Shown: positions 2,285-56,144 of the stretch, piece after piece | Layout: each line of letters begins with the position of its first letter | Numbering within the stretch: the first letter of the stretch is position 1 | Origin: a virus | Virus record (IMG/VR): IMGVR_UViG_3300025117_000042 | Coordinates: 39,541 to 103,540 of that record | Direction: 5' to 3' (one strand) | Length of the DNA stretch: 64,000 nt | Notes under the pieces: model-generated | Database searches by the model: none | What the model saw: the letters and a program-made list of their open reading frames with translations, nothing else | What the model was told of the DNA's origin: nothing | Made by a program: the position numbers and the translations under genes

Positions 2285-3493
2285 ATGAATTTAGTACAGC
2301 TTGTATCCTTTGATACTCTACCTTATGCAAAGTTCACTCTGACAAGAGATATAGCTGCCGGGGCTACTGACATTTATTTGACTGCTACTGAGGGTTTATC
2401 TAAAGGGAGTTTTCTAATAGTAGGTTCTATCAATAGTCCTACAGCTCAGTTAGTAGAGATAGATTCAATAACAAACTCTACAACTGTTAAACTTGTTGCT
2501 GCCTTGAGATATGCACATCTAATAGATGATCCAGTTACTTTAACTCTTTTCGATCAGTTTAACATCTATTTCGGTACTACCGCTGACTTTAATAGCCATA
2601 CCCTTCTGGACACTATTGATATTATGGTATCCAGAAATATCACGACTTACGTGGATGAGGACACTTCCCATACACCTTCTACCTTTTACAGCTATTCGTA
2701 CTATAATTCAGATACCGGGATTGAGAGCAACCGTATTCCGGTCATCTCCTCTGGCCTGGATATTGACATTACTCCTCAATACCTCCGTGAGAACTATCTG
2801 TATGGGTTGGATCTTACGGAAGATAACGGAAACCCTCTCCCTGAAGGCGTGTATTGGGAAGGCATTAAAGCTGGTATAGATTGGCTTGAGCAAGTTTTGA
2901 ACATTGATATTATATCTCGTACTCATACTGATGAGATGAGTGACTTTAATAGACAAGAGTACTTGCAATGGGTATTCCTTAAAGCCAAACACTTCCCGAT
3001 CAGAGAAGTTCTGTCAGTAAAAGGCTCTTATTACGGTAATGAAATTACTTTCCCGCTAGATTGGGTAAGGCTAAAAGAACGAGCTGGTATTATAAATCTT
3101 GTTCCTGGGGCTTCTACGTTCTCTAGCTTCCTTATTCCGGCAAGCGGGGGCATTCTTCCCATATTAAACAATCAAGTATCGTACATACCAGGATTCTGGA
3201 GAATTTCTTACACATCAGGATTTGCCAGAGGGACAATTCCTTACAACCTCAAGGCTTTGATCTGTAAAAAAGCTGCATTCATGCCTCTGAACATCCTGGG
3301 CGACTTGGTTGGTGGTGTTGCTATTGCCAGTAAGAGCATTGGTATAGACGGCTTGAGTCAGTCTATTAACACTACAAACAGTGCTGAGAACGCTGGTTAT
3401 AGTGCAAGGCTTAGAATGTACCTGAAAGAGATAGATCAGGAGCTTCCACAGGTTCAGAAATTCTGGCGACCTATTAATTTTGTATGTGTTTGA
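2285..3493 (+). CDS. Head-tail adaptor (neck) protein with N-terminal extension
   Basis: The C-terminal ~245 aa match SPO1/K-like adaptors (YLYGLDL, ISYTSGF, SIGIDGLSQSI, GYSARL). Position precedes the sheath. Confidence 0.7.
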   Translation: MNLVQLVSFDTLPYAKFTLTRDIAAGATDIYLTATEGLSKGSFLIVGSINSPTAQLVEIDSITNSTTVKLVAALRYAHLIDDPVTLTLFDQFNIYFGTTADFNSHTLLDTIDIMVSRNITTYVDEDTSHTPSTFYSYSYYNSDTGIESNRIPVISSGLDIDITPQYLRENYLYGLDLTEDNGNPLPEGVYWEGIKAGIDWLEQVLNIDIISRTHTDEMSDFNRQEYLQWVFLKAKHFPIREVLSVKGSYYGNEITFPLDWVRLKERAGIINLVPGASTFSSFLIPASGGILPILNNQVSYIPGFWRISYTSGFARGTIPYNLKALICKKAAFMPLNILGDLVGGVAIASKSIGIDGLSQSINTTNSAENAGYSARLRMYLKEIDQELPQVQKFWRPINFVCV

Positions 3494-5226: not shown

Positions 5227-5463
5227 ATGAAGGAAAAAGAAGAAAGGAAAGAACTGCCTGTGTACGCCGAACCTGTTGTGGAAGAGCCTGTGAAGGTTGT
5301 CGGTGAGGTTATTCACGTATCTCACTCTGACTTCGTATCCACACTCAAAGACACTGATTATCTTATAGGTATGGCTATGAGACAGGAGTTCCAACGTAAA
5401 CGGTTATCAATGGAAGAGTGGCACATAGAACTACGCAAATTTGGGAAAAGGGAGGTAAAATAA
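5227..5463 (+). CDS. Small hypothetical protein preceding sheath
   Basis: AGGAG SD; synteny. Confidence 0.5.
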   Translation: MKEKEERKELPVYAEPVVEEPVKVVGEVIHVSHSDFVSTLKDTDYLIGMAMRQEFQRKRLSMEEWHIELRKFGKREVK

Positions 5464-5466
5464 CAA

Positions 5467-7233
5467 ATGAGTGTTTACAAGGGGATTTACTTTCGAGGTC
5501 GGGGCATCATCATTCCCGGTGCCTATGCTGATGTAGACGCAACAAGCATGGTGCCGAACAGATTGTCTCCTGCCAATGTCCTTGCAATGCTGGGGCAAGC
5601 TAAAGGTGGGGTTCCGAATCAAGCTGTGCGGGTTCTTAACCTGCGGGATGCTGTAAACATGCTGCGGAGTGGCGATCTTAAGACTGCGGCAGAACTTGCC
5701 TACGATCCAAGTGCTGACATGCCTGGAGCTGGGGAAGTTATCTTTATCAGGGTAGCTGGTACAGGTTGTGCTAGATCAACTTCTGACCTTTCGAGTCAGG
5801 TTACTCTTACAGCCGTTGACTATGGGGAACATACAAACTTTCTCCGTAGGAAAATTGAAGCTGGTTCTGTAGCTGGCCGGAAAATCACTATCAACCATCA
5901 GGCAGATGATATTACAGAAGTATATGATAACATCGGGCCTGTCTTTCAAATCCAGTACGTAGGGTCTGCTTCGGCTGCTCGTATGAGTTTCGATGCTAGT
6001 ACAAAGATTCTGCTTATCGAAATAAATACTGGTTCGTGGGTTCCGCTGGTTACTTATACTGTAACCAACATTGCTGTTGATACAATCTCTGAACTTGTGA
6101 CTATCCTTGACTCTCATCAGGATCTTACTTGTAATATACACAAGTATGGTTCTGGCAACATGAGTTCTTCTTTGCTGGATGCAATGACTCAGGTTGATAT
6201 TAAAACCGCTCTTACCACTGTATCTTCTGAAGTTGGTTCTCTTATCACTTGGGTTAACAATCGTTCTGCGCTGTGTACTGCGGCTGCTGGTGTGTCTGCC
6301 ACTGGTAACTTTACTAATAGCAACTGGACAAATTTCGTAAACGGTTCTGAAGGTTCCGCTCCTGATGTAGCTGCATGGTCGGCAGCTCTGGCTCTTCTTG
6401 AGTCTGAGACTGATGTTAAATACATCTATTGTGCTACTGACAATGAATCCATCCATACCGCAGCTATCGCACATTGCACCACTCAGTCAGATCCTAAAGT
6501 AGGCCGGGAACGTAGGCTTATCTTCGGTGGTGCTGCTTCTGAAACTGTCGATCAGGCTACTACAAGGGCTATCAATCAAGGTTCTCCAAGAGCCATGCTT
6601 GTATATCCTGGTATCAAGCGGGTTAACGCTCAGACTAACCTGTTGACCGTTATTCCTCCGTATCTCACAGCCGCAGCTGTCGCTGGAATGGCTGCTGGTG
6701 CTACGCCGGAAACTCCGCTTACCTACAAAACCATCAAAGCTCATGGGATGGAAAAATACCTGAAGGATGCTGAAGTTGAACAGCTCCTACAACAGGGTGT
6801 TACTCCTATTCGGTACGTAAAAGAAGATGCTATCTATCAGATCGTTCAGTCTATTACAACTTGGCAGAAAGATGCCAATGTAATCTATCGCAAATGGTCT
6901 GGTATGGGCATTCACGATTACCTCCGTCAGGAAGCTCGTAATACGGCTAAACCATTCATCGGAAGAGTAGGCGATATGTATGCTATGTTGTCTATTAAAA
7001 ACGCCGTAGCAGCAAAACTTGACCTTCTTACCCGTACTCCTCAGAATCCTAACGGTGTCCTTACGAAAGTATGGGACTATGCAAAAGAGCAGGTACTACC
7101 TGCTTGGGATAACCTGTTGGTTGAATGGGATGGTTATGACCATGTAAACGTTTCCTTCAGGGCACATCCTGTCGGGGAAATTGCTTACATCACGATCATG
7201 TGTACTCTTGAACCTGCAAAGATGACAGTATAA
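5467..7233 (+). CDS. Tail sheath protein
   Basis: 588 aa. N-terminal PGAY.DVD; C-terminal AAAVAG...PLTYK...LL..GV...ITT sheath motifs. Strong SD GGAGGT. Confidence 0.92.
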   Translation: MSVYKGIYFRGRGIIIPGAYADVDATSMVPNRLSPANVLAMLGQAKGGVPNQAVRVLNLRDAVNMLRSGDLKTAAELAYDPSADMPGAGEVIFIRVAGTGCARSTSDLSSQVTLTAVDYGEHTNFLRRKIEAGSVAGRKITINHQADDITEVYDNIGPVFQIQYVGSASAARMSFDASTKILLIEINTGSWVPLVTYTVTNIAVDTISELVTILDSHQDLTCNIHKYGSGNMSSSLLDAMTQVDIKTALTTVSSEVGSLITWVNNRSALCTAAAGVSATGNFTNSNWTNFVNGSEGSAPDVAAWSAALALLESETDVKYIYCATDNESIHTAAIAHCTTQSDPKVGRERRLIFGGAASETVDQATTRAINQGSPRAMLVYPGIKRVNAQTNLLTVIPPYLTAAAVAGMAAGATPETPLTYKTIKAHGMEKYLKDAEVEQLLQQGVTPIRYVKEDAIYQIVQSITTWQKDANVIYRKWSGMGIHDYLRQEARNTAKPFIGRVGDMYAMLSIKNAVAAKLDLLTRTPQNPNGVLTKVWDYAKEQVLPAWDNLLVEWDGYDHVNVSFRAHPVGEIAYITIMCTLEPAKMTV

Positions 7234-29426: not shown

Positions 29427-30451
29427 GTACTCTCCGGTTTGCATTGACAGAAGCTGGCGTAAAGACAAAGCCACTCCCAAAGAAGACCGAATTTGCCATT
29501 AAGTGCTTTAAGTGCAATGACACTGGTATGCACATGTATGTGAATGAAGGGGTTGTAAGGGAAGGAGTCAGAGGCTGGTGTTACTGTCATAGAAGAGGGT
29601 GTGTAGCTACAGTAAAGCAACTTGCTATACATTATCAACTATTATATGATTACGATAGCTATAGAGCTGGTGTTACCACTACAGAGGCAGTGCTTACAAA
29701 GCTAGCCAATTTGGGATTCGAACAGCCAGTAGGCAAGATCAGTATACAAGATAGTTGGTTCAATTTCGATCAGTTTGAGAGTCCTTTAACGTCTAAGTCA
29801 TTTTTCGCACAAAAGGCTAAGACCTATCTCAACAATAGACGAGGCTTTTCAGATCCTCTAATAGCTTTATATGACTTTCGCTTTGCTGATGCAGGGGATT
29901 ATGCCGGAAGGATCATCATCCCATTTACGGAACGTGGCGAATTAGTTTATTTTCAGGCTAGAAGTTATCTGTTAGCATCGACGTTAAAGGTTCTCAATCC
30001 TCCAGAAGGTGTGTTTATAGGGGGGAAGTCTGAATACCTGTACAATTTTGATAGAGCAAGGCTATTTCCAACTGTTGTAATAGCTGAAGGCTGGGCATCT
30101 GCTGTGTCTTGCGGTTTGAATGGGGTTGCGATCAATGGCAATGCCGCTTCTGACATACAGCTCGAAAAGCTATTAGAATATTGGGATAACTACGTTGTAG
30201 TTCTGGATAATGGAGTGGAAGATAAAACATTCGATTTGGCTGAAAGCCTGTTGCACAGGAAACCTAAATCCAATGTGAGTATAGTACTGCTTCCCGAAGG
30301 CGATCCAAATGACTACACATTCAAAGAGATGAAGACATTTATTAGCAATGCTAAGAGATATCATTCAGTCTCTGAGATAAAAGCCGAAGCTATCAAATTC
30401 CCTGCCAGAGGACATGATGATAAAAATAATCAAAGGGATAAACAGCAGTAA
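29423..30451 (+). CDS. DNA primase (Zn finger + TOPRIM)
   Basis: CxxC...CH.xC; GRIIIP, FQAR, EG, LDN and DPND motifs. Confidence 0.88.
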   Translation: MSTLRFALTEAGVKTKPLPKKTEFAIKCFKCNDTGMHMYVNEGVVREGVRGWCYCHRRGCVATVKQLAIHYQLLYDYDSYRAGVTTTEAVLTKLANLGFEQPVGKISIQDSWFNFDQFESPLTSKSFFAQKAKTYLNNRRGFSDPLIALYDFRFADAGDYAGRIIIPFTERGELVYFQARSYLLASTLKVLNPPEGVFIGGKSEYLYNFDRARLFPTVVIAEGWASAVSCGLNGVAINGNAASDIQLEKLLEYWDNYVVVLDNGVEDKTFDLAESLLHRKPKSNVSIVLLPEGDPNDYTFKEMKTFISNAKRYHSVSEIKAEAIKFPARGHDDKNNQRDKQQ

Positions 30452-31829
30452 AGTAGTAACAGATGACGCAAAAGTTTTAATAGAATTAGATGAATTGTTT
30501 GCTTTCAAAGTTCCAGGTTGTGAGTTTGTCGATGCCTACAAGAGGAAGCTATGGGATGGTAAGTCTCATATGTTCAGTAGGTTAACCGGCAAGTTCAACA
30601 CTGGTCTTCTCCCAAGAGTAGTTGATGAAATATACAAGCTTACATCAACTATGCCTACCATAGAAACAACCTACGATCTACTTATTTCAAAGAAACCGAT
30701 AATAGATAAACTGAATGGAATAGAGCTACGACAGTACCAGACTGAAGCAGCTGATGCATTCATGCGTCCTGGTCGAGGTATCGTCAAAGCAGCAACCAAC
30801 TCTGGAAAGACAGAGATAATGGCTGAACTGTTACGAAGGATCAATAGACCTTCTATAGTTCTATTACATAGACAGGAGATTATGTATCAAACAGCAGAAC
30901 GTCTGGAGGAGAGACTATCTGTTCCTGTTGGGATTATTGGTGATAATAATTCTAATATCAAAGATATAACAGTAGTAATGTTTCAGTCAATAACAGAGCG
31001 GAAAGCTGTAAAGAACACTTTTGGGCAAACAAAGAAATCCAAAGCATGGAGAATGAAAGATGAATATAAGCATCTTTGTGATCAGCCTGTACTGTTCTTT
31101 GATGAGTGTCATAATATATCTGATGACAGAGCTAAGATAGTGGCTAAAGAGAGTAAGGCTATATTTCGAGGTGCGTTTTCAGGTACACCTTTGCTGCATG
31201 ATGAAATAACCAATTTGACTCTTGAGGGTCTGTTTGGTGGTGTTGTTTATGAAATATCTAATAAAGAACTTATAGCTTTGGGTGTATCCTCAATCCCGGT
31301 CTGCCACATAATGAAGATCGACACAAAGGGTATTCTGTCTGCCGACTATGCGAAAGCCTACGATAAAGGGGTAGTGTATAGTAGTACCAGGAATGGGGCT
31401 ATAAGGGAGATAGCTGTCAACCATGCTAACGAGGGGAAGAGTGTTCTTATAATAGCAAGGGAGCATAATCATATTATGAACCTGATGGAGCTTATACCAG
31501 GGGCAGAGTATGTGCATGGGGCTATGCCGAGTAAAACCAGGAGAGCCAGATTATTGGCCTTCAAGCAGGGTAAGATTAAAACTCTCATATCATCCACCAT
31601 TCTTGATGAGGGTGTTGATATCTCTAATATAGAGGTGCTGATACTTGCAGCCGGGGGGAAATCCAGTATCAAGATCTTGCAGAGAATCGGTAGGGGGTTA
31701 CGTGCCAACGAGTCGATGCAGCTGGCTGTATATGATTTTATGGATATAGGGAATTGGTATCTTTTGGATCATTCGCAGCAGAGGATACAGATGTTGAAAT
31801 CGGAGGGGTTCAGGGTAAAATTGGGCTAA
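30414..31829 (+). CDS. SF2 DExH helicase (UvsW-like)
   Basis: LRQYQ, ATNSGKT, DECH, SGTP and QRIGRGLR motifs. Confidence 0.92.
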   Translation: MMIKIIKGINSSKVVTDDAKVLIELDELFAFKVPGCEFVDAYKRKLWDGKSHMFSRLTGKFNTGLLPRVVDEIYKLTSTMPTIETTYDLLISKKPIIDKLNGIELRQYQTEAADAFMRPGRGIVKAATNSGKTEIMAELLRRINRPSIVLLHRQEIMYQTAERLEERLSVPVGIIGDNNSNIKDITVVMFQSITERKAVKNTFGQTKKSKAWRMKDEYKHLCDQPVLFFDECHNISDDRAKIVAKESKAIFRGAFSGTPLLHDEITNLTLEGLFGGVVYEISNKELIALGVSSIPVCHIMKIDTKGILSADYAKAYDKGVVYSSTRNGAIREIAVNHANEGKSVLIIAREHNHIMNLMELIPGAEYVHGAMPSKTRRARLLAFKQGKIKTLISSTILDEGVDISNIEVLILAAGGKSSIKILQRIGRGLRANESMQLAVYDFMDIGNWYLLDHSQQRIQMLKSEGFRVKLG

Positions 31830-31848: not shown

Positions 31849-31910
31849 AAAAAATATATTATAAAAGTGCTTGCATTGTTGTGTAGTTTTGATATTATAT
31901 CAGTGTAGCA
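31849..31910 (+). promoter_or_regulatory. Early sigma70-type promoter, copy 1 of a ~62-bp direct repeat
   Basis: A/T UP tract; TTGCAT-16-TATTAT with TGn extension; palindrome TGATAT-T-ATATCA over the -10. Confidence 0.8.
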
Positions 31911-31929: not shown

Positions 31930-32070
31930 GGGGCTTTCGTTCAACCGTGTTTAGGACACTCAGACCCGAACATCTTTTTAATTAGTACCTAAGCTTGAAC
32001 CTACCGGGGGTTCGCTAGGGGAAATGTAAAGAGGTGCTGAGAGATGTGGGTTCGATACCTACAAGCCTCC
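31930..32070 (+). ncRNA. tRNA-like RNA with a 66-nt hairpin in the anticodon arm
   Basis: Acceptor GGGGCTT/AAGCCTC; D stem GTTC/GGAC; anticodon stem CTCAG/CTGAG; T arm GTGGG-TTCGATA-CCTAC; 73 nt between the anticodon-stem strands. Confidence 0.8.
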
Positions 32071-32072
32071 GC

Positions 32073-32135
32073 AAAAAATATATTATAAAATGTGCTTGCA
32101 ATGTTATGGAAGTTTGATATTATATCAGTGTAGCA
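32073..32135 (+). promoter_or_regulatory. Early sigma70-type promoter, copy 2 of the direct repeat
   Basis: TTGCAA-16-TATTAT, near-identical to 31849-31910. Confidence 0.8.
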
Positions 32136-32168
32136 ACAACGCAGGTTGCCCAAACGAAAGGAGATATT

Positions 32169-32999
32169 ATGTTTACATCTACTAAAGTTCTCACCCCTGA
32201 GCAGCTGCGCCGGTCTGTACCTTCAGCTTTTGCCGTTGAAGCTCATGAGTCCATGAGTGATCGTTATGGCTTCATCTCTACTGAGCAGGTTATCAATGCT
32301 CTCGTTAATGAAGGTTTCCTTCCAGTGTATGCACGTCAAACCAATGTACGAGATAAAGGTAAGCAGGACTACACAAAGCATCTGATACGGTTCCGGCATG
32401 TCGATGTTAAGCCTGTTGTCGGGGATGTGTTCCCTGAGATAGTGCTTGTCAACTCCCATGATGGCCTGAGCAAGTACAAGATGGATGCAGGGCTGCTCCG
32501 GTTGGCTTGCTACAACGGCATGGTTGTGGGGGAAGGCACCATCTCTCAGGTAGCTATCCGCCACAATAAAAACGTGGTCGATGGGGTACTGGAAGCAGCC
32601 TTTGAAATCACTGAGCAGGTTCCTTTGATAGCCGGGGCTGTAGAAGAGATGCGAAGGGTTATGCTGAACTATGAAGAGCGTCTGGTTTTGGCTAAGGCGG
32701 CTTTGGTTTTCAGGTACGAAAAAGAGCCGGAAGACCTGGAAGAGATACCAGTTAAACCAGGGCAGCTTCTTCAGGTACGTAGGTATCAGGATAAGGAAGT
32801 ACAAAATACACTGTGGGGTACTTATAATATTGTTCAGGAGAACTTGACGAAGGGTGGGGTTCATTACAACAGAGTGAATCCCGAAACTCACAGGGTACGG
32901 CATCAGACAACCAGGGAAATTAAGTCGATCAGCGAAGATATCAAGCTGAATAAAGCTCTCTGGACATTGGCAGAGGAGATGAAGAACATTAAAGGGTAA
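32169..32999 (+). CDS. DUF932/DUF945-family protein
   Basis: SDRY.FI.T, KH..RFR, NSHDG.S, RL.C.NG, TLW..YN..QEN and LN.ALW motifs. Confidence 0.88.
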   Translation: MFTSTKVLTPEQLRRSVPSAFAVEAHESMSDRYGFISTEQVINALVNEGFLPVYARQTNVRDKGKQDYTKHLIRFRHVDVKPVVGDVFPEIVLVNSHDGLSKYKMDAGLLRLACYNGMVVGEGTISQVAIRHNKNVVDGVLEAAFEITEQVPLIAGAVEEMRRVMLNYEERLVLAKAALVFRYEKEPEDLEEIPVKPGQLLQVRRYQDKEVQNTLWGTYNIVQENLTKGGVHYNRVNPETHRVRHQTTREIKSISEDIKLNKALWTLAEEMKNIKG

Positions 33000-35387: not shown

Positions 35388-36566
35388 ATGCAATGTGAAT
35401 TCTCAGAAAGCTGTAGTCTGCATGGTTCCTGTAACAGCCCTAAGATCAGAATTGAAGGAAAGGTAAACCCTGATGTGCTGATCATTAGCGACTGCCCACA
35501 TGCTGAGGATGATAATTGTAACAGCGTCCTGGTAGGTGAAGGTGGGGAGCTGTTACGTGAAGCTTTGAGGGGCAATGGTTTTAATCTTAGCAAAGTAGCT
35601 TATACGTTTGTGGTGAAATGTAGACCTACGCAACAGAAGTGGGGTAAGATCGTAAATCGTGATCCTTCAGACAAGGAAGTAAAAACGTGTAAGCCTTTTG
35701 TATTAGCAGAGATAGAGGTATTCAAGCCAAAGATCATCCTCCTACTAGGCTCTGTAGCGTTCAAGGCTGTATTAGATGGTAAGGGGATCATGGCTAACCG
35801 GGGAAGGCTGTTTGAATACAACGGTATCCCGGTCATTCCGACCCTTCACCCTGATATGGTTATTAGAGATGATACACATCTAAATCCTTTCGTTAAAGAT
35901 ATCGAAACCCTGTGGAAGTTCTTCACCGGCACTATGCCAGTAGAGGAAAAGCCTACTGATTATATTCTCTGTGACACCAAACAAAAACTAGATGATCTAA
36001 TAGACTATGCTTCAGATAAAGATGAGTCAGCAGTTGACTTAGAAACATCTACTCTCAACATGTTTAAGGATGATTCACAGATCGTATGCTGTAGTTTTTC
36101 CTTCTTCGAATATGAAGCTCACATAATACCTTTGTATAATAAACAACAAATTTTTACCGGCAAGATGTTGAATTACGCAAAAGCGGTGTTAAAGATATTA
36201 TGTGAGTCTGAAATTAGGAAGATCCTTCAAAATGGTAAGTTCGATATCAAGTACCTGGAAGTGACGGAAGGTATTCTATTAAACAACATGGTTTCAGATA
36301 TCATGATGAAGTCCTACCTGTTCAATGAAGAGGCTAAAACACATGCTCTGGATTATCTGGTGTGGCAGTATGTGCCGGAAATGGGGAGCTATTGGGATGG
36401 TCTGGAGCAGTACAAGGCAGAGCACAAGGATTGTGATCCTGAGCAAGGCGGGACGTACAGGAATATTCCTTGGAAAGTAATGATACCTTATGTTGGAGCA
36501 GATACTGATGCTACTATTAGAATAGATCATCGGCTGAATGATTTACTGAAAGGAAAACAACCATGA
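35388..36566 (+). CDS. DNA polymerase N-terminal subunit: family-4 UDG-like domain + 3'-5' exonuclease
   Basis: Fe-S cysteines, VKCRP and TLHP (UDG-4); ExoI DLETS, ExoII QNGKFD, ExoIII Y..AD.D. Confidence 0.85.
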   Translation: MQCEFSESCSLHGSCNSPKIRIEGKVNPDVLIISDCPHAEDDNCNSVLVGEGGELLREALRGNGFNLSKVAYTFVVKCRPTQQKWGKIVNRDPSDKEVKTCKPFVLAEIEVFKPKIILLLGSVAFKAVLDGKGIMANRGRLFEYNGIPVIPTLHPDMVIRDDTHLNPFVKDIETLWKFFTGTMPVEEKPTDYILCDTKQKLDDLIDYASDKDESAVDLETSTLNMFKDDSQIVCCSFSFFEYEAHIIPLYNKQQIFTGKMLNYAKAVLKILCESEIRKILQNGKFDIKYLEVTEGILLNNMVSDIMMKSYLFNEEAKTHALDYLVWQYVPEMGSYWDGLEQYKAEHKDCDPEQGGTYRNIPWKVMIPYVGADTDATIRIDHRLNDLLKGKQP

Positions 36567-37001: not shown

Positions 37002-37541
37002 ATGATTGTGCTTGTCGATATGGATGGAATTGTAGCTAAGTTAGAAGAACCTTGGCTAGCTTTGTATAACAAAGATTATGATGACTGTCTTGTGTCAGAG
37101 GATATGACTGATTTCGATTGGTCGAAGATAGTAAAGCCTGAATGTGGCACTAAGATCTTCAGTTATTTAGCTACAGAAGGCTTATTTCTTAACTGTGAGC
37201 CTTACGAAAACTCAGTTGATGCTTTATTACAACTATATTTAGACAAGCACGAACTGTATTTTGTAACAAAAGCTCATAATCTGGCAAAGTTTGCCGTTAT
37301 AGAGAAGATGGATTGGGTTGACAAGCACTTTCCGTTCATAGGTCGAGATAAAGTTATTTGTACAGGTTATAAGCACTTGATTCGTGGAGATGTTTTAATA
37401 GATGACTACCACAAAAACTTCCGTGGTTTTCAGGGTAAGAAGCTCCTGTTTGATCGTCCCTGGAATAGGAGTGCTTGCGAGATTGATCTGGTGAGAGTTT
37501 ACACCTGGGATCATGTACTTTATGAAATAGAGAATATGTAA
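37002..37541 (+). CDS. 5'(3')-deoxyribonucleotidase (HAD, NT5C-like)
   Basis: VDMDGIV, K..WV..HFPF, LIDD and F..PWN motifs; ATG 37002 with AGGAG SD. Confidence 0.88.
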   Translation: MIVLVDMDGIVAKLEEPWLALYNKDYDDCLVSEDMTDFDWSKIVKPECGTKIFSYLATEGLFLNCEPYENSVDALLQLYLDKHELYFVTKAHNLAKFAVIEKMDWVDKHFPFIGRDKVICTGYKHLIRGDVLIDDYHKNFRGFQGKKLLFDRPWNRSACEIDLVRVYTWDHVLYEIENM

Positions 37542-38902
37542 TGCTTGACGGTGTGTTTCCTTCACAAAATAGTTTCTCAGAGGTAAACGATCATCTGTTT
37601 ATCCCTGCACTGTACGCTCTTAAAGAGGTAGAGAAGCAGGGATTTACTATTGATATGAATAAGTTTCTCTGTTTAGAGGAAGGTTACACAGTAAAGCTGA
37701 ATCAACTGGAGGATAGAGTCAGGAGCTATCCTGAAGTATTGAGTGTAGAAAAGAAGATAGACAAGAAGTTTAACCTTAATTCAGGGGATCAGATACATGA
37801 GCTGTTCTTTGTAGAGATGGGTCTATCTCCTGAAGGTATAGAACCGACAGATAGCGGTAAACGGTTAAGCACTGGTAAGAAGACCATAGCAAAGCTGAAA
37901 GATAAGCATGAGATAGTAGAGCTTATCAATCAGCATAAGAAGTACGCCACACTGTATAAGATGTTCGTTAAGCCATTGAGGAAGCACATTTGTCTTGATG
38001 GCAGGGTACATTGTGTCTATCTCCCTCTTACAAAGACAGGGAGGCTTATCTGTTTCGATCCAAACCTTCAGCAGATACCAAAGAACATAAAAGCTGCTGA
38101 CATAGGTTTCGACTTCGATCCTGCTCTGAACATAAAAACTATGTATATTCCATTCGATAAAGATTATTTATTGATGGAAGCTGACTATAGCCAGATGGAG
38201 CTTAGAATCCTTGCAGCCTATTGCCAGGATGAGGTGATGAAGGGGATCTTACTGCGGGGAGAGGATATTCACTTAGCTACAGGTCAGGCTATGGCCGATA
38301 TCGTGGAGCCTGGGGTTATTGTAGACAAGGACAGCAAATGGAGGAAAGCAGCAAAGACAATCAACTTTGGTATTATATATGGCGAGGGTGACAAGGCTCT
38401 AGCCGAGGCTCTGCATGTAACAGAGAAGGAAGCAAAACAGTTTAAGCGTAACTACTTCGATAGCATGCCTGGGGTTGAAACCTTCCTTGATGATGTATAC
38501 AATTTCGTATACGAAAATAGGTATGTTACTACAATGTTTGGGAATTACCGGAGGTTGTTGGGGGTAACATCTCCTCAGAAGTTTGTCAGGTTTGAGGCAC
38601 TGCGGCAAGCTTTGAACATGCCGATCCAAGGTACAGCAGGGCAGTACACTATCTGTGCTATTATAAACATCATTGATATTATACGTAAGTACAAGATGAA
38701 GTCTCGTATAATAGCAACAATTCACGACTCCATTATGTTTTGTGTACATAAAGATGAGATAAAACAAATGGCAGAGATAGCTCAGACAGTTATGGCGAAT
38801 CCTACTAACCCATTGATTTATTGGGATCTAGGTGTACCACTGAAAGCAGATTTGAAGTTGAGTGAAAATAGTTGGGCGGATCTGAAAGATTTTACACCGT
38901 AA
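37541..38902 (+). CDS. polA: DNA polymerase family A, polymerase-domain subunit
   Basis: TKTGRL...PNLQQIP; motif A DYSQMELR; motif B RKAAKTINFGIIYG; motif C IHDS. Confidence 0.93.
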   Translation: MLDGVFPSQNSFSEVNDHLFIPALYALKEVEKQGFTIDMNKFLCLEEGYTVKLNQLEDRVRSYPEVLSVEKKIDKKFNLNSGDQIHELFFVEMGLSPEGIEPTDSGKRLSTGKKTIAKLKDKHEIVELINQHKKYATLYKMFVKPLRKHICLDGRVHCVYLPLTKTGRLICFDPNLQQIPKNIKAADIGFDFDPALNIKTMYIPFDKDYLLMEADYSQMELRILAAYCQDEVMKGILLRGEDIHLATGQAMADIVEPGVIVDKDSKWRKAAKTINFGIIYGEGDKALAEALHVTEKEAKQFKRNYFDSMPGVETFLDDVYNFVYENRYVTTMFGNYRRLLGVTSPQKFVRFEALRQALNMPIQGTAGQYTICAIINIIDIIRKYKMKSRIIATIHDSIMFCVHKDEIKQMAEIAQTVMANPTNPLIYWDLGVPLKADLKLSENSWADLKDFTP

Positions 38903-55460: not shown

Positions 55461-56144
55461 ATGAAGGAATATCATAAGATACAGACCATCTATAAGAGGG
55501 ATATGTTCTCGAAAGAAAAACATATATTAGAGGGTCAGTGGTCTTTGCCTGAATTCGAGTTCTTGCAAAATAATATATGGGAGTTCACTGAAAAGGTGGA
55601 TGGCACCAATATTCGTGTAATGCCTACAGAAACAACAGTATTATTTGGTGGGAAGACCGATAACGCACAGATACCCGCACCTCTGGCTAATCGGTTGAAT
55701 GAGCGGTTTTTACCTTTGCATGAGCGTATGGTGGATTTGTTTAGGGATAATATAGGTTCAGTGTGCTTATATGGCGAAGGGTATGGAGCCAAGATTCAGA
55801 AAGGTGGAGGGAACTACCGGCAAGATCAGGATTTCGTGTTGTTTGATATTAGAATAGGTGAATGGTGGCTGCAACGTAATGATGTGGAGAATGTAGCTGC
55901 TACTCTTGGATTGGAGATTGTACCTGTAATAGGGTACGGTACGCTTCACGATGCTATTAGAACAGTTAAGAATGGTTTGTTATCAATGTGGGGGATTTTC
56001 AGGGCTGAAGGGATCGTCGCAAGACCGAAGGTGGAGCTTAAAGCCAGGAGTGGTCAGAGGATTATTACCAAGATCAAGTGTTGTGATTTTGACTTGGGAA
56101 GGGGAGACTATGGAAGCGATCAGGTATCTGGAAAAGGTAATTGA
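55461..56144 (+). CDS. RNA ligase (Rnl2-like nucleotidyltransferase)
   Basis: Y.KI, motif I EKVDGTN, III YGE, IIIa F.LFDI, IV EGIV, V KIK. Confidence 0.88.
   Translation: MKEYHKIQTIYKRDMFSKEKHILEGQWSLPEFEFLQNNIWEFTEKVDGTNIRVMPTETTVLFGGKTDNAQIPAPLANRLNERFLPLHERMVDLFRDNIGSVCLYGEGYGAKIQKGGGNYRQDQDFVLFDIRIGEWWLQRNDVENVAATLGLEIVPVIGYGTLHDAIRTVKNGLLSMWGIFRAEGIVARPKVELKARSGQRIITKIKCCDFDLGRGDYGSDQVSGKGN

Follow-up and report, generated by a model that had tools for sequence, protein, structure and literature searches.

Can a phage RNA gene that folds into the cloverleaf of a transfer RNA (tRNA), with a long hairpin built into its anticodon arm, serve as a decoding tRNA, and if it cannot, what else could it be for? 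The question is raised by a 141-nt gene in a 64,000-nt stretch of DNA, referred to here as the window, which comprises bases 39541-103540 of the IMG/VR record IMGVR_UViG_3300025117_000042 (G000, 103,540 bp), the genome of an uncultured groundwater phage, rated complete by CheckV and with a GC content of 41.7%. A sequence-only reading of the window had described the gene as a tRNA shape with a 66-nt hairpin grafted into it, and had left two explanations standing, a non-decoding tRNA mimic and a phage tRNA with a protein-spliced intron.

Fold of the RNA and its counterpart in a related phage

The cloverleaf and the hairpin were recovered in the sequence as that reading had placed and spelled them (Table 1). 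The minimum free energy structure computed with RNAfold was a cloverleaf whose anticodon arm carries a long hairpin, and it reproduced the arrangement of 7 unpaired nt followed by a self-contained 66-nt hairpin. When checked helix by helix, all listed helices were completely paired. T8 and C9 follow the 5' strand of the acceptor stem, A26 stands between the D stem and the anticodon stem, and the base at position -1 is C, with G-1 not encoded. The folding z-score of the window RNA relative to shuffled sequences was only -1.6, and because of this value the folding energy alone was not counted as evidence.

A 143-nt counterpart was found at L003:2754-2896, among 80 IMG/VR loci obtained by a DUF932 alignment search, and occupies the same slot as in G000, between a helicase gene and a DUF932 gene. 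Locus L003 comes from G001, a complete 102,805-bp IMG/VR contig and the sole related phage found, which is collinear with G000 at a median protein identity of 61.5% (89% for TerL). The overall plan of the L003 RNA is that of the window RNA, with a different sequence; its hairpin is 69-70 nt long, and its folding z-score is -3.8.

RNAalifold, run on the window and L003 pair, gave 31 consensus pairs, 12 of which are changed on both sides with the pairing kept. Every pair in the acceptor, D, anticodon and T stems, and in three hairpin stems, is standard in both RNAs (helix-by-helix check), so that both copies have the four fully paired stems of the cloverleaf, together with the core of the L shape. 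The acceptor strand reads GGGGCUU in the window and GGAGCAU in L003, the anticodon stem CUCAG/CUGAG and UUCGG/CCGAA, and the T stem GUGGG/CCUAC and AAGAG/CUCUU, the last with three of five pairs changed on both sides and one on one side. Identical in both copies are U8, C9, A14, A15, U48, the T loop UUCGAUA and C73. The D loop holds the canonical GG in L003 (AACAGGUUA) and GUG in the window, and the L003 RNA, like the window RNA, is without an encoded CCA behind its discriminator C73.

A covariance model (R1), built from the window and L003 pair only, finds one copy in each of the two genomes, had no hit with E ≤ 0.1 when run on about 0.87 Mb of bacterial DNA selected for a shared sequence pattern, and in 0.56 Mb of phage loci gave only one unrelated weak match (L058, 24 bits). 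Covariation had been proposed earlier as a check on function, and all stems covary in the single available ortholog, as expected for a functional structured RNA. From the ortholog, the compensatory changes and the model controls, the RNA is judged to be real, conserved and under selection for structure, a judgement that is drawn from sequence comparison.

Complementarity between the nominal anticodon and the hairpin tip

In the window RNA, CCCG of the unpaired stretch (31965-31968) is complementary to CGGG of the apical loop of the hairpin (32005-32008), giving four Watson-Crick pairs. In the L003 RNA, the unpaired stretch (G)GUAGCA stands against an apical loop AGGCUAC, and GUAGC:GCUAC gives five Watson-Crick pairs. 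The register is the same in both RNAs (bulge position 2 opposite loop position 7, apical loop at nt 73-79 in both), the calculated duplex energy is -4.9 kcal/mol for each loop-loop pairing, and the nominal anticodon covaries with the apical loop across both phages. In a Monte Carlo simulation using composition-matched random 7-mers, both run lengths were obtained with a probability of 4e-4, and the same register in addition with 1e-4. The predicted pairing is taken as a strong lead, not as proof.

The bases that would pair with the apical loop in the window RNA include C33, which fits a pairing constraint at this position rather than a U-turn constraint. Two geometries could allow the contact. 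The arm could fold back at its first internal loop, which is plausible for the window RNA (an outward run of 10 bp and a return of about 11-12 bp across the 7x7 loop), or two molecules could form a head-to-tail dimer, in which each tip could reach the bulge of its partner irrespective of arm length.

Table 1. Positions of the RNA gene, its parts and the adjoining features in the window (RNA nt 1 is window position 31930).
Feature	Position	Strand	Remarks
tRNA-shaped RNA gene, 141 nt	31930-32070	+	
Acceptor stem, 5' strand GGGGCTT	31930-31936	+	Partner 32063-32069; 7/7 pairs in both phages, 2 compensatory
D arm, GTTC / AACCGTGTTTA / GGAC	31939-31957	+	A14 and A15 present; loop GUG where tRNAs have G18-G19
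Anticodon stem, 5' strand CTCAG	31959-31963	+	Partner 32037-32041; 5/5 pairs
"Anticodon loop" ACCCGAA, 7 unpaired nt	31964-31970	+	A32 C33 C34 C35 G36 A37 A38; RNA nt 35-41
Inserted hairpin, 66 nt	31971-32036	+	10-bp outer stem, 7x7 internal loop, 6-bp stem with bulged A, UU bulge, 5-bp stem, 7-nt loop
Apical loop UACCGGG	32002-32008	+	RNA nt 73-79
Anticodon stem, 3' strand CTGAG	32037-32041	+	Hairpin adjoins with no intervening unpaired base
Variable loop AGAT (4 nt), then T arm GTGGG-TTCGATA-CCTAC	32042-32062	+	U48 able to pair with A15
Acceptor stem, 3' strand AAGCCTC, and discriminator C73 (32070)	32063-32070	+	Followed by GCAAAAAA; no CCA encoded, no terminator
ResIII/UvsW-like helicase, upstream neighbour	30414-31829	+	Pfam ResIII, Helicase_C, UvsW_N; ends a DnaB-like helicase / primase / helicase block
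Promoter block P1	31843-31910	+	A/T-rich; -35 TTGCAT 31871-31876, 16-nt spacer, TGn and -10 TATTAT 31893-31898
Promoter block P2, near-copy of P1, for DUF932	32074-32140	+	TTGCAA-16-TGnTATTAT at 32096-32123
DUF932 protein, 276 aa, downstream neighbour	32169-32999	+	Pfam PF06067, E 2e-42

Detection by tRNA and RNA-family searches

With its default threshold, ARAGORN called no tRNA or transfer-messenger RNA (tmRNA) anywhere in G000, whether introns were allowed or not. At a 90% threshold six calls were made in G000, one of them the window locus, as tRNA-Arg(CCG) containing a 66-nt intron, so that the window copy on its own is borderline. In intron mode at the default threshold, the L003 copy was called as tRNA-Ala(AGC) with a 69-nt intron. 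The ARAGORN intron check that had been suggested earlier thus succeeded at the default threshold for the ortholog, but only at the lowered one for the window. Over 1.85 Mb of fetched loci, intron mode (30-150 nt) gave one call only besides the copies of this RNA element. Each of G000 and G001 has one copy of the RNA and no other tRNA.

With Rfam 15 at the gathering threshold, no match was obtained in the window, in locus L100 or in the remainder of both genomes, which bears out the expectation that the RNA belongs to no existing Rfam family. At E ≤ 10 the sole row from the tRNA clan was tRNA-Sec, at a meaningless 13 bits against a cut-off of 47. The window RNA is therefore missed both by the Rfam tRNA model and by ARAGORN as run by default without introns.

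The score below the ARAGORN default, the z-score of only -1.6 and the non-canonical D loop and position 33 are what would be seen in the window if the gene were a tRNA pseudogene in decay, interrupted by a chance or mobile insertion, or if the fold were accidental. This explanation is disfavoured and very improbable: all helices, including those of the insert, were kept through many two-sided changes despite protein divergence, the ortholog was scored at the default threshold and has a z-score of -3.8, and the promoter arrangement is conserved.

Decoding capacity

The nominal anticodons differ at the orthologous locus, being CCG (Arg) in the window RNA and AGC (Ala) in the L003 RNA. U33 is near-universal in tRNAs; the window RNA has C33, and the L003 RNA has U33 in one of two possible registers, the one used by ARAGORN, while A37 is present in both. 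As encoded, neither RNA offers a 7-nt anticodon loop with U33 and a purine at position 37: a 6-7-nt bulge is followed by the 66-69-nt hairpin. Synthetase identity marks agreeing with the anticodon appear to be absent from both copies, which share C73. AlaRS needs G3:U70, a universal mark, and position 3:70 is G-C in the window and A3-U70 in L003, with no G3:U70 in either. The main mark for ArgRS, A20 in the D loop, is missing from the window RNA (D loop AACCGUGUUUA). To our knowledge, the AGC anticodon, with A34, is not normally used in bacteria. As for features of tRNA-His, C73 is present in both copies, G-1 is not encoded (-1 is C or A), and there is no GUG anticodon. Codon usage is near-identical in both phages, with CGG rare (4.3 and 3.1 per 1000) and GCU the commonest Ala codon (about 40 per 1000 in both), and because usage is alike while one nominal codon is rare and the other common, no single codon-supply logic fits both RNAs.

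Two exclusions made in the sequence-only reading were upheld. The insert is far below the size of a self-splicing group I intron (66-69 nt, against about 200 nt or more plus the core), with no Rfam intron or ribozyme match even at E ≤ 10. A tmRNA is ruled out by the presence of a D stem, a 3:70 pair that is G-C or A-U, and negative ARAGORN and Rfam results. By inspection of the fold there is no bulge-helix-bulge either, as the unpaired stretch lies on the 5' strand only and the 3' strand runs unbroken from the hairpin into the anticodon stem.

RNA-end repair genes and the case for splicing

Upstream of the window, G000 carries a Thg1-family gene (tRNA-His guanylyltransferase-like, a 3'-5' polymerase; PF04446, E 8e-25) at 2548-3237 (L102:2548-3237, + strand) and, at 5368-6827 (L102), a metallophosphoesterase gene directly followed by one for RlaP, an RNA-repair Pol-beta nucleotidyltransferase. 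The window itself encodes a 227-aa RNA ligase (PF09414) at 55461-56144. Together, Thg1, the metallophosphoesterase with RlaP, and the RNA ligase make up an RNA-end repair kit found in G000 only: G001 retains the RNA but lacks Thg1, RlaP and the ligase. The conserved C73 and the phage Thg1 raised the possibility of G-1 addition and histidine charging; as G001 retains the RNA without Thg1, this enzyme is not an obligatory partner. In other phages, RNA-repair genes of this kind have been read as answers to host tRNA attack (PMC7824862), and here they do no more than make a tRNA-centred conflict plausible for G000.

These genes also bear on whether the RNA is a true pre-tRNA, from which a host or phage nuclease would remove the 66-69-nt hairpin and a ligase would rejoin the ends to give a 74-75-nt decoder, with the intron masking or positioning the anticodon until then. 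ARAGORN models both copies as a tRNA with an intron beside the anticodon loop, and removal of the intron leaves a 7-nt loop, with the purine A37 in both copies and U33 in L003 in the register of that program; the RNA ligase, RlaP and phosphoesterase of G000 could serve in such a reaction; and a report on Lak megaphages describes 'enigmatic' introns in their tRNAs (PMC6784885). We nevertheless consider splicing unlikely. The anticodon differs between the orthologs, the matching identity marks are missing and A34 is unusual; the window RNA has C33; the ligase, RlaP and Thg1 are all missing in G001; there is no bulge-helix-bulge, and the insert is too short for group I and matches no Rfam intron or ribozyme. 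Codon usage, finally, gives no reason for an Arg-CGG decoder in one phage and an Ala-GCU decoder in the other.

A proposed locked tRNA mimic and its alternatives

Of the two explanations left standing at the outset, the non-decoding one is thus favoured, by the anticodon that is not conserved and that covaries with the apical loop, by C33, the absent marks and codon usage, and the spliced tRNA keeps some probability. We put at about 0.5 the probability that the RNA is a stable non-decoding tRNA mimic, whose anticodon would be locked by the tip of its own arm and which would act on a factor recognising the tRNA body. The orthologous position in both phages, the identical core positions, the conserved layout and the single copy per genome also count in its favour. 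Transcription of the RNA would start from a sigma-70-type promoter of its own and would meet no terminator after the gene. Host enzymes that recognise the tRNA shape would release the RNA from this transcript, RNase P at the 5' end and RNase Z or exonucleases at the 3' end, followed by CCA addition. The arm would then bend back and bring its tip into pairing with the 'anticodon', or two molecules would pair head to tail. This pairing would hide the anticodon and make the arm too bulky for decoding, and the mimic would bind or distract, outside translation, the factor that recognises the tRNA body. For this factor, a host defence enzyme directed at tRNAs is the evident candidate, and naming the target itself is a guess. 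More tentatively, the RNA may represent a new class of phage RNAs, with a complete tRNA body that carries its own 'codon', each a locked mimic serving as a decoy or inhibitor in a tRNA conflict, as a monomer or as a head-to-tail dimer. As part of this wider possibility, the locked mimic could engage processing enzymes, defence nucleases or transferases, and perhaps the ribosome, without decoding.

Several points weigh against a locked mimic. There are two distinct sequences in all, so the covariation is a single comparison, and the loop-loop complementarity was tested on these same two sequences after it had been noticed. The fold-back is less obvious for L003, in which the arm runs 9 bp out and about 13 bp plus loops back. 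Pairing of an intron with the anticodon is normal in eukaryotic intron-bearing pre-tRNAs, and for this reason loop-loop pairing alone leaves splicing possible. Thg1, RlaP and the RNA ligase were rejected as obligatory partners because G001 has the RNA and none of the three.

The tRNA body could instead be a carrier that provides processing and stability, with the hairpin as the active part, displayed in place or freed by a double-strand RNase, and binding a protein or acting as an antisense RNA. Such an arrangement has a laboratory parallel, as tRNA scaffolds reportedly stabilise inserted RNAs in E. coli, and it would suit a body that evolves freely while its shape is kept, and a hairpin whose length and layout are conserved. 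It is quite unlikely, because the hairpin sequence is not conserved, as a fixed antisense target or a protein site defined by sequence would lead one to expect, and because the one conserved property found for the insert is its pairing to the bulge of its own molecule.

Promoters and neighbouring genes

The two promoter blocks P1 and P2 are near-identical segments of about 65 nt on either side of the RNA gene, each consisting of an A/T-rich part, CTTGCA and TGnTATTAT, followed by ATCAGTGTAGCA. The pattern CTTGCA-N15-19-TAWWWT has two matches in the 103.5-kb genome, in P1 and P2 only. Transcription from P1 would start near 31905, which implies a leader of about 24 nt before G1. In L003, a promoter TTGCAA-16-TATAAT lies 19 nt upstream of the RNA, and the predicted leader is about 12 nt. 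Leaders of these lengths would require an RNase P-type cut at the 5' end. The layout is the same in both phages, promoter, RNA, promoter and DUF932, with no terminator-like site. The sequence-only reading had credited the RNA with a strong promoter of its own; what the sequence shows is a consensus match.

The upstream helicase is 59% identical to its counterpart at L003:1289-2701, in the same position, and the downstream DUF932 protein is 58% identical to L003:2995-3855. For DUF932, the AlphaFold model is fairly confident (pLDDT 78.7). A sequence-profile search of the PDB returned nothing, Foldseek gave no hit at E ≤ 0.001, and the best VIA-align match (Z 7.4) was to a generic alpha+beta sheet domain, leaving no convincing PDB relative; a full-text literature search gave nothing useful on function. 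Homologs of the RNA had been predicted upstream of DUF932 genes in related phages. This holds for L003 but not for the other 79 DUF932 loci scanned, and because these are without the RNA, no general tie between the RNA and DUF932 is drawn.

Given this setting, the RNA might act in cis, as a processing signal in a long P1 transcript running into DUF932, or as a priming or R-loop-forming transcript at an origin of replication. In both phages the stretch from the RNA to DUF932 is free of a terminator, the site lies inside a module of a helicase-loader-like protein, a DnaB-like helicase, a primase, a helicase and a polymerase, and the two promoter copies are unique in G000. A role in cis is nevertheless improbable: DUF932 has its own promoter directly behind the RNA, so that the upstream transcript is not needed; a conserved tRNA core and loop-loop pairing would be unexpected in a mere primer; and the cumulative GC skew of G000 is monotonic, with no origin signal here.

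The DNA polymerase I-type enzyme is split. A fusion of a uracil-DNA glycosylase (UDG)-superfamily domain and a 3'-5' exonuclease is encoded at window positions 35388-36566, and a separate polymerase-domain gene lies at 37541-38902, about 1 kb downstream of the exonuclease gene, with two small open reading frames (ORFs) between them.

Searches for further relatives

With the locus as query, blastn gave no match among GenBank phages or PLSDB plasmids, and the exact T-arm 24-mer gave none in IMG/VR. Helicase-based searches of IMG/VR and the JGI metagenomes returned the contig of L003 only, a TerL-based IMG/VR search returned no further clade member (the next best being 38% identical), and R1 found nothing in 19 whole records. 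Two RNA patterns run against IMG/VR recovered only the contig of L003 and an identical 6.6-kb fragment, and one RNA pattern run against GTDB genomes gave at least 120 pattern matches, none of which, among the matches listed, passes R1. In the protein database, closer relatives include P0002 (56%) and P0003 (53%) for DUF932, and P0123-P0132 (42-61%) for TerL. Full-text literature searches returned no description of such an RNA.

The weak R1 match in L058 was rejected as a homolog, being a different odd tRNA-like gene. It occupies 110 nt (L058:4996-5105; IMGVR_UViG_3300050821_003306, 57.9 kb) and combines a 7-bp acceptor stem and a normal T arm with an 8-bp 'D' hairpin and an anticodon arm that is long, irregular and closed by a 7-nt loop. 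An Rfam-detected tRNA follows about 300 nt downstream, and a second, ARAGORN-called tRNA about 1.4 kb downstream; the gene itself was called by neither ARAGORN nor Rfam.

Source genomes

The sequencing runs with G000 DNA are groundwater and soil metagenomes, and none of those listed is an RNA run. The DNA contigs covering the RNA locus are identical, with no variants or joints. At the termini of G000, the first 50 bases are repeated at 103376, which gives a 165-bp terminal overlap (1-165 / 103376-103540), and the assembly closes on itself. The same TerL is listed in the protein database on 206,207-bp contigs, about twice the genome length. The terminal overlap and these contigs point to circular or concatemeric assemblies. 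In G001, a 216-aa ORF at 101953-102603 (L184:1953-2603, - strand) has LAGLIDADG and helix-turn-helix matches and is without a counterpart in G000; its probable product is a free-standing homing endonuclease.

Comparison with known systems

Canonical phage tRNAs, such as those of the T4 and T5 clusters, share with the window RNA the core of the L shape, the T loop and the 7-bp acceptor stem, as well as, in some cases, the lack of an encoded CCA, and the window RNA would need RNase P as they do; its genome, G000, also has tRNA-repair genes. It differs from them in the large hairpin in its anticodon arm, C33, the GUG of its D loop, the lack of identity marks, and in going undetected by the Rfam tRNA model and default ARAGORN. 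T5 tRNAs are said to overcome PARIS or retron defences.

In eukaryotic and archaeal pre-tRNAs the intron likewise stands just after the anticodon (37/38 in the ARAGORN model of the window RNA) and is in part complementary to it. The window RNA, unlike these, has no bulge-helix-bulge: the 3' end of its insert stacks on the anticodon stem, and there is no 3-nt bulge four pairs off. Its context is bacterial, with sigma-70-type promoters and a Shine-Dalgarno sequence, and we know of no bulge-helix-bulge-type splicing endonuclease in bacteria.

Lak megaphage tRNA genes carry 'enigmatic' introns (Devoto et al. 2019, PMC6784885). As described there, they are alike in that a tRNA-shaped phage gene is interrupted at or near the anticodon loop by an insert too small for self-splicing group I. 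The window and L003 RNAs appear to differ in having an insert of 66-69 nt with internal loops, predicted pairing to the anticodon from a distant apical loop, no coherent amino-acid identity, and an anticodon that changes between orthologs, and in being the sole tRNA-like gene in the genome.

Closer in kind to a non-decoding mimic are YrlA, the tRNA-like domain of tmRNA, viral 3' tRNA-like structures and gammaherpesvirus tRNA-miRNA hybrids, which are all non-decoding copies of the tRNA shape that borrow tRNA enzymes or partners; some tRNA-like non-coding RNAs are phage-borne (PMC7824862). In contrast to YrlA, which ends in a Ro-binding stem and whose acceptor-like stem is loop-closed, the window RNA ends in its acceptor stem; no Rfam match to YrlA was found, and no TROVE/Rsr family was present among the proteins scanned, from which small ORFs were left out. 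The tRNA-like domain of tmRNA differs in having no D stem and in carrying G3:U70.

Phage tRNAs and the host enzymes that cut or modify tRNAs are a current focus of work on phage defence, and the known phage counter-measures are spare tRNAs and RNA repair enzymes. If the RNA is indeed a look-alike that hides its anticodon, it would add a third counter-measure, an RNA that acts as a decoy or inhibitor, and would be a natural example of the laboratory 'tRNA scaffold' design. If it is spliced instead, the non-self-splicing introns of phage tRNAs would come to include an insert of far greater size and structure, and a pathway for tRNA splicing in bacteria would be required. The RNA, which has no Rfam family, belongs among the tRNA-like non-coding RNAs or the insert-bearing phage tRNAs, and what is new here is a complementarity between anticodon and apical loop that is kept in both phages.

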